Positions 20,377 through 20,388 of a DNA stretch of 64,000 bases are shown piece by piece (the first letter of the stretch is position 1; every line of letters begins with the position of its first letter). The stretch is taken from the NCBI GenBank assembly GCA_964016885.1, contig OZ024743.1:331638001-331702000 (forward strand), given 5' to 3'. This DNA comes from Eledone cirrhosa. Taxonomy: Eukaryota. The notes beneath the pieces were generated by a model that did not search any database, was not told the origin of the DNA, and saw nothing but the letters and a program-made list of their open reading frames with translations. The translations under genes were made by a program, and so were the position numbers.

Positions 20377-20388
20377 GCCGAAATAGCT
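20377..20388 (-). promoter_or_regulatory. Non-canonical primer-binding site complementary to tRNA-Phe nucleotides 1-12
   Basis: Minus strand AGCTATTTCGGC directly follows the 5' LTR CA. Its complement GCCGAAATAGCT is the conserved 5' end of animal cytosolic tRNA-Phe(GAA). No TGG-type PBS is present. Confidence 0.8.

Follow-up and report, generated by a model that had tools for sequence, protein, structure and literature searches.

The window analysed, a 64-kb stretch of Eledone cirrhosa DNA, hosts on the minus strand an LTR element which spans positions 20662 to 16504 (Table 1), is 4.16 kb long, and features TG..CA termini and a 5-bp TSD. The LTR edge at 20389 is fixed, because the 3' LTR ends (at 16504) with the same AACCACA terminus as the 5' LTR, and the AAAGA TSD is found at both sides. 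The copy is decayed and dead. The two LTRs are identical at 229 of 250 aligned bases, the first pol frame stops within the RT thumb region, and the second has a premature stop at its end. The terminal part of pol, and a hairpin preceding the PPT, both shown by other copies, are missing. A single CX2CX4HX4C knuckle is found in gag, near 19587-19546. A splice-donor-like GGTAAGT sequence resides in the 3' LTR (16530-16524) and in several host families (L037-L066), mapping ~20-27 nt ahead of the LTR end; it was not found in the metagenome relatives tested. The window also includes a satellite with strong GC skew (48-bp unit, ~236 copies, 44500-56000), long open frames at 25039-27468 and 28041-28943 on the plus strand and at 2999-4333 and 35423-36358 on the minus strand, and a near-perfect inverted repeat of 153 bp at 33011-33332.

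Table 1. Components of the LTR element identified in the window
Feature	Position	Strand	Remarks
TSD, 5' copy (AAAGA)	20663..20667	-	5 bp
5' LTR, TG...ACA	20389..20662	-	274 nt
U5 arm GAGATAGCTT	20401..20410	-	can pair with the first part of the putative PBS, 10 bp including G-U
Putative primer-binding site (PBS) AGCTATTTCGGC	20377..20388	-	zero spacer; complementary to tRNA-Phe(GAA) nt 1-12
gag	19492..20246	-	several frames in the window copy; TAG at end
pol frame 1	18323..19534	-	aspartyl protease, RT palm (YIDD)
pol frame 2	16890..18395	-	DUF7047 (predicted RT thumb region), RNase H (RVT_3 type), HHCC and DDE integrase
PPT remnant, G-rich	16750..16762	-	
3' LTR	16504..16755	-	initial bases missing in G run; terminus AACCACA
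TSD, 3' copy (AAAGA)	16499..16503	-	5 bp

On the minus strand, positions 20388-20377 read AGCTATTTCGGC, immediately 3' of the LTR terminus. This 12-mer is the exact complement, in priming orientation, of nt 1-12 of the host tRNA-Phe(GAA). The corresponding host genes start with GCCGAAATAGCT (219 pattern matches, none in the control), and ARAGORN placed the gene start at the first G of GCCGAAATAGCT in all 6 loci scanned. In the host, long tandem tRNA arrays have been noticed at G000:C4:117.37-117.57 Mb, C4:79.56-79.62 Mb and C4:128.67-128.74 Mb; they are made either of Phe with Asn genes, at ~1.26-kb spacing, or of Lys(CUU) genes. The first-pass annotation had described a 12-mer flush with the 5' LTR, complementary at 12 of 12 positions to the 5' end of tRNA-Phe, in an element devoid of a TGG-led PBS, and all of this is borne out by the LTR and TSD boundaries, by the host tRNA genes, and by the lack of a conserved TGG site 0-5 nt from the LTR end. 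The last result led to rejecting canonical priming by tRNA 3' ends. U12 of tRNA-Phe lies opposite the first base past the LTR, hence the 3' end of nt 1-12 is directed into the LTR, as a primer requires. Residues 13-14 of the tRNA (CA) are unable to pair with the LTR end. Since pairing is limited to nt 1-12, with U12 at the LTR edge, a fragment ending at U12 would extend into U5. The 12-bp duplex formed by site and tRNA was computed at -18.8 kcal/mol.

The junction is abundant in the host genome, searched over 3.0 Gb: ACA followed by the exact 12-mer was found 514 times, the reversed pattern once. Among the best host copies (30 fetched of the 41 best matches), 21 carry the exact site and 9 differ by one base. 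The 12-mer with a different next base has 194 matches, against 1 in the control; 30 of these were fetched, and include 24 sister subfamilies, 3 divergent coding families, 2 cases without nearby coding homology and 1 unrelated palindrome, a MITE-like repeat containing the 12-mer (L063:1502). The divergent families (L046, L047, L062) retain the exact 12-mer, and their gag sequences are 48-70% identical, while LTR ends and leaders are unrelated. L052 and L053 kept the junction, but have zero coding homology within 7 kb, and were for this reason not counted as divergent autonomous families. LTR similarity stops one base before the site in 9 of the 13 LTR pairs printed, the other 4 being cut off or circular, and 5-bp TSDs are visible in L196, L202 and L203.

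Conservation extends beyond the host. A metagenome scan identified 76 loci encoding relatives at 34-54% protein identity. In 30 metagenome loci anchored on gag alone, each with enough upstream DNA, the A|AGCTA junction was found upstream in 28, and in 144 of 1260 shuffled windows (11%). The motif is hence conserved across copies and relatives. The two misses are L130, which has no such site, and L097, which carries a 2-base variant (AGCGAACGCGGC). L130 sits in an outlying 7-row clade of the midpoint-rooted pol tree, and may use another primer. Junctions breaking the rule map at L130:1365-1400, L097:1145-1160 and L096:3233. As the site is made of 12 bases only, and the window copy is dead, the match could be thought fortuitous, or the relic of a single family. 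The host junction counts and the 28 of 30 metagenome loci contradict this reading, and the maintenance of the site among relatives at 34-54% protein identity refutes it, leaving it a negligible probability.

The way in which the site varies is informative about its partner. Forty-six distinct junctions (5 host, 41 metagenome) were selected by AGCT, which makes columns 1-5 circular. AGCTATTTCGGC is found in 18 of them, AGCTATCGCGGC in 10, AGCTATCACGGC in 5, AGCTATCCCGGC, AGCTACCTCGGC and AGCTATCCGGGC in 2 each, and 7 are singletons. In this AGCT-selected set, columns 9-12 are 89-98% conserved, columns 7-8, corresponding to tRNA residues 6 and 5 in the acceptor stem, are the most variable (57% and 48%), and conservation drops to 30-65% in columns 13-24, beyond tRNA base 1. 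Variation thus concerns mainly acceptor-stem positions, and conservation ends at tRNA base 1. Variants are scattered over the pol tree (FastTree, midpoint-rooted; duplicates were excluded, as were junctions whose pol match did not exceed 300 aa), and L103, of the CGC type, groups as sister with two elements of the TTC type (support 98). The site of L124, AGCTAGCCGGGC, pairs without mismatch with nt 1-12 of a host-type tRNA-Lys(CUU). The 3' acceptor strand of this tRNA, TCTGGGC, differs from the L124 site, so that the site reflects the 5' strand of the tRNA rather than copying its 3' end. The most frequent variants, namely CGC, CAC and CCC, were compared with tRNAs of viral contigs, in place of tRNAs from their own hosts, and do correspond to tRNA 5' ends there. 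A search pattern requiring a tRNA-like context, including the D-loop, found 33 tRNA genes with such starts in 42 viral-contig loci; as a point against the proposed reading, however, most are Thr genes (23 Thr, 6 Phe, 3 Ile and 1 Leu). AGCTATCCGGGC, the site of L133 and L138, may be the complement of the 5' end of tRNA-Lys(UUU). No tRNA with a matching start was found in either the host or the viral searches, and the host tRNA-Lys(UUU), represented by one divergent gene, mismatches the site at its start. The match is partial or bulged in L096, L106, L110, L121 and L125. At L106:1930 and in L125 near 1120 the sites are 13 nt long, with one extra base (AGCTATCATCGGC and AGCTATCGTCGGC); either a bulge or a different tRNA is possible. 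The notion advanced in the first-pass annotation, that the 12-mer is a PBS for a tRNA 5' end, is well supported, as the site has the position and orientation required, is conserved among distant relatives, and switches to Lys(CUU) in one of them; the restriction to tRNA-Phe did not stand.

The 12-mer resides also at 44 further host places (14 in the control), and this leaves room for a different RNA, whose 3' end equals the 12 bases, acting as primer, or for a protein-binding site. Twenty of these places were examined: none has an Rfam gene over the 12-mer, though one U4 gene is found 1.1 kb off, and 4 are altered copies of the lineage. No element-encoded Rfam RNA was found, and with 0 Rfam matches at E<=1 an element-borne RNA primer was rejected. 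Neither reading predicts that the site should switch to an exact complement of the tRNA-Lys(CUU) 5' end, or that conservation should break off at tRNA base 1, and we regard both as improbable. In three unrelated host loci (L232, L238 and L240, near 1500) the 12-mer is preceded by TGT, which may reflect chance or another element type.

A different possibility is that the tRNA match is coincidental, and that the 5' end of the element's own RNA pairs with the site, as in Tf1 of S. pombe, whose RNA anneals to the PBS through its first 11 bases and is cleaved by RNase H between positions 11 and 12 (PMC7175516). The zero spacer and the 11-12 nt site do resemble Tf1 (PMC7175516), and in the window family the U5 arm GAGATAGCTT pairs with the site over 10 bp, in a local fold of -14.6 kcal/mol. 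The arm, however, is just 11 nt from the LTR end, is confined to the window's family, and has no counterpart in other families. The 400 nt upstream were searched in 43 elements for the longest stretch complementary to the site, which amounts to 3.95 by Watson-Crick pairing, against 4.10 in shuffled sequences, and to 5.88 against 6.09 when G-U is allowed; with complements no better than those of shuffles, self-priming fails as a lineage rule. A self-primed site should moreover drift with its LTR, whereas the site is fixed here though the LTRs share nothing. Self-priming was rejected, as no complement of at least 10 nt was found in the 5' LTR, the sole case being the family-specific, G-U-containing arm, and we deem it very unlikely.

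The tRNA 5' strand could also bind, and open the acceptor stem, without priming. The freed CCA end, or a longer half, would then prime nearby, or the contact would serve packaging or dimerisation. Bipartite tRNA contacts exist in Ty1 and Ty3 (PMC5371799), and no enzyme has been shown to cleave a tRNA after U12. Such a view is hardly reconciled with the coincidence of the LTR terminus with the end of U12 pairing, which is the required start of synthesis, nor with the failure to detect conserved TGG sites near the LTR end or a conserved second complement downstream: within 300 nt no second conserved tRNA contact was found, each 7-mer occurring in at most 2 of 17 elements. Binding without priming is unlikely, yet of the readings opposed to a tRNA 5'-end primer it is the one we take most seriously.

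Altogether, we assign a probability of roughly 0.75 to the 12-mer being the true PBS of a large lineage of animal LTR retrotransposons, in which the 5' end of a tRNA of the host, most often tRNA-Phe, acts as primer. Judged by sequence comparison, a lineage-wide primer site of the tRNA 5'-end type may be considered established. The 5' end of the tRNA is very probably the partner of the site and, with slightly less confidence, probably the primer; the 12-nt primer, and the nuclease which releases it, are what we infer from these data. According to the scenario favored, the element RNA would invade the acceptor stem and the first D-stem strand of the tRNA, probably assisted by the Gag zinc knuckle. 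The process is demanding, as the 12-bp site has to outcompete a 7-bp acceptor stem. The tRNA would be cut or trimmed after U12, where pairing stops, to give a 12-nt primer with a 3'-OH. By analogy with Tf1, which is cut after 11 paired bases, the likeliest cutter would be the element's RNase H, though the odds that it really is are a little short of even; trimming of a host 5' tRNA fragment would provide an alternative source of primer. The predicted RT-RH model, RNase H fold included, is confident (pLDDT 90.7), and the acidic residues of the RNase H motif (D313, E349, D373 and D432) show little or no variation among 100 sequences. Taken alone, the RNase H domain finds its best structural match in an archaeal RNase H1 (Z 17.6, rmsd 2.1, 122 aligned residues). 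Archaeal RNase H1-type enzymes are able to cleave dsRNA, a property on which the scenario does not lean. The primer would be copied during plus-strand synthesis, and the site possibly regenerated; this would account for the abrupt end of conservation at tRNA base 1, as well as for the changes of primer. That plus-strand DNA can include a copy of the primer is described for HIV and MLV, and not for Ty1 or Ty3 (PMC7472051).

The lineage behaves as an LTR retrotransposon, and layout and domain order are Gypsy-like. It shares with Ty3/Gypsy elements direct TG..CA LTRs, 5-bp TSDs, a CCHC gag, the PR-RT-RH-IN order, and an RT-RH region without tether domain; in contrast to the canonical 3'-CCA priming of Ty3/Gypsy, the TGG site is absent. 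The Gypsy label used in the first-pass annotation could not be confirmed, and is doubtful. The Gypsy-type RNase H domains PF17917 and PF17919, a marker chosen in this work and not a formal Metaviridae criterion, gave no hit at E<=0.1 in any of 8 relatives, nor in any of the 3 window frames; on PF17917, copies of a host Gypsy family reach 102-120 bits. RVT_1 gives 24-31 bits on the lineage proteins (8 relatives). On 28 frames of a single host Gypsy family the lineage profile scores at most 13.9 bits, whereas frames of the window reach 374 and 293, and pol profile scores are 64 bits for MMTV integrase and 31.7 for Ty3 Gag-Pol. The RT-RH model is equidistant from MLV (Z 22.6), CaMV (22.5), Ty3 (21.9; rmsd 3.7, 344 aligned) and foamy virus (21.8), all at 14-16% identity, and caulimovirid RTs rank first in BFVD. 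PMC12440569 regards a GPF/Y motif near the C-terminal end of integrase as a hallmark; no such motif is present among the conserved columns, and the window has QWGRGMV at that place. The domain PF23088 of Pfam (DUF7047) lies past the RT palm and ahead of RNase H, where the model is helical; to judge from the predicted structure, it is probably both the RT thumb and a marker of the lineage. By language-model comparison, RT-RH has neighbours in Euglenozoa, which we take as a lead and nothing more.

The lineage resembles Troyka/Kuafuorterviruses, a deep-branching LTR lineage of aquatic animals once filed under Gypsy (PMC12440569, PMC11673190), which similarly lacks GPF/Y and tether. Yet Troyka elements have CG..CG ends, 3-bp TSDs, a CX2CX8-10HX4C knuckle and IADD/VADD/LADD motifs (PMC12440569, PMC11673190), and the elements described here TG..CA ends, 5-bp TSDs, CX2CX4HX4C and YIDD; these four differences led us to reject identity. 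In the main text on Troyka, none of the words primer, PBS and tRNA appears. DIRS, VIPER and TATE were rejected as well, because an rve integrase and TSDs are present, and no tyrosine recombinase replaces the DDE integrase.

Named homologues were found in Argonauta, Octopus, Aplysia, Oratosquilla, Petrolisthes, Penaeus, Portunus, Trinorchestia, Amphibalanus and Nymphon; looking up 20 of 150 representatives added Sycon and Trichuris. The named homologues, along with repeat content, point to an octopus as the host. An RT-RH search of 1.84 billion entries gave 464 clusters (50% identity) at E<=1e-30, and 3383 at E<=0.001. None of 32 IMG/VR candidates was confirmed as a relative. In ~25 of 86 loci scanned (L073, L075-L080, L086-L116, L122, L131, L202-L204) a short hairpin is located directly 5' of a short G-rich PPT, ahead of the 3' LTR; its stems covary (TGATC/GATCA, TGAAC/GTTCA, TGATT/AATCA, TGACT/AGTCA). 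The window copy is devoid of it near 16765. The hairpin may be a signal for plus-strand priming or packaging.

The full-text literature searched, which excludes Repbase and GyDB, holds no description of a tRNA 5'-end site, of the lineage, or of DUF7047 in a retroelement; among the matches listed, papers containing the 12-mer deal, by title, with tRNA probes or tRNA biology. This type of primer site is apparently undescribed, though there is some chance, clearly below even, of an earlier note in Repbase, GyDB, subscription journals, bioRxiv or other supplements. Since the site is of the tRNA 5' type, PBS finders seeking TGG would miss the lineage, with its 464 clusters (50% identity, E<=1e-30). 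Escape from silencing by 3'-tRFs may be predicted, and a very short 5' tRNA fragment would gain a testable function. The broadest view, in which an undescribed superfamily-level lineage, defined by DUF7047 and ranging from sponges to nematodes, arthropods and molluscs, would use its RNase H to cut the tRNA after base 12, and its RT to extend the 12-nt 5' piece in a fourth priming mode, is tentative, and at present we would rather bet against it.

Three types of primer are distinguished for LTR retrotransposons in PMC6317226, namely whole tRNAs, half tRNAs cut in the anticodon stem, and self-primers, and a tRNA 5'-end primer, if true, would be a fourth. Elements primed by half tRNAs (Drosophila copia, Ty5, Osser, Bryco, Gymco-II, Bianca) similarly obtain the 3'-OH from an internally cut tRNA (PMC6317226, PMC5371799). 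Those elements, however, are Copia, and the cut is in the anticodon stem-loop of tRNA-Met or tRNA-Ile (PMC6317226, PMC5371799); here, the proposed cut falls between nt 12 and 13, within the D-stem, pairing involves the extreme tRNA 5' end, and the pol order is PR-RT-RH-IN. Membership in this group was rejected, as the site does not correspond to the anticodon stem of tRNA-Met or tRNA-Ile, and the domain order is not that of Copia. Tf1, Tf2 and sushi resemble the lineage in that a short site flush with the LTR pairs with the leading 11-12 bases of an RNA (PMC7175516), a geometry which in both cases needs a cut at the end of the duplex. They differ because here the partner is a host tRNA acting in trans, the LTR has no complement to the site, and the proteins are not chromovirus-like. 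Priming by tRNA 5' ends would thus link the two other modes based on cut primers, by joining a Tf1-like geometry to a host tRNA.
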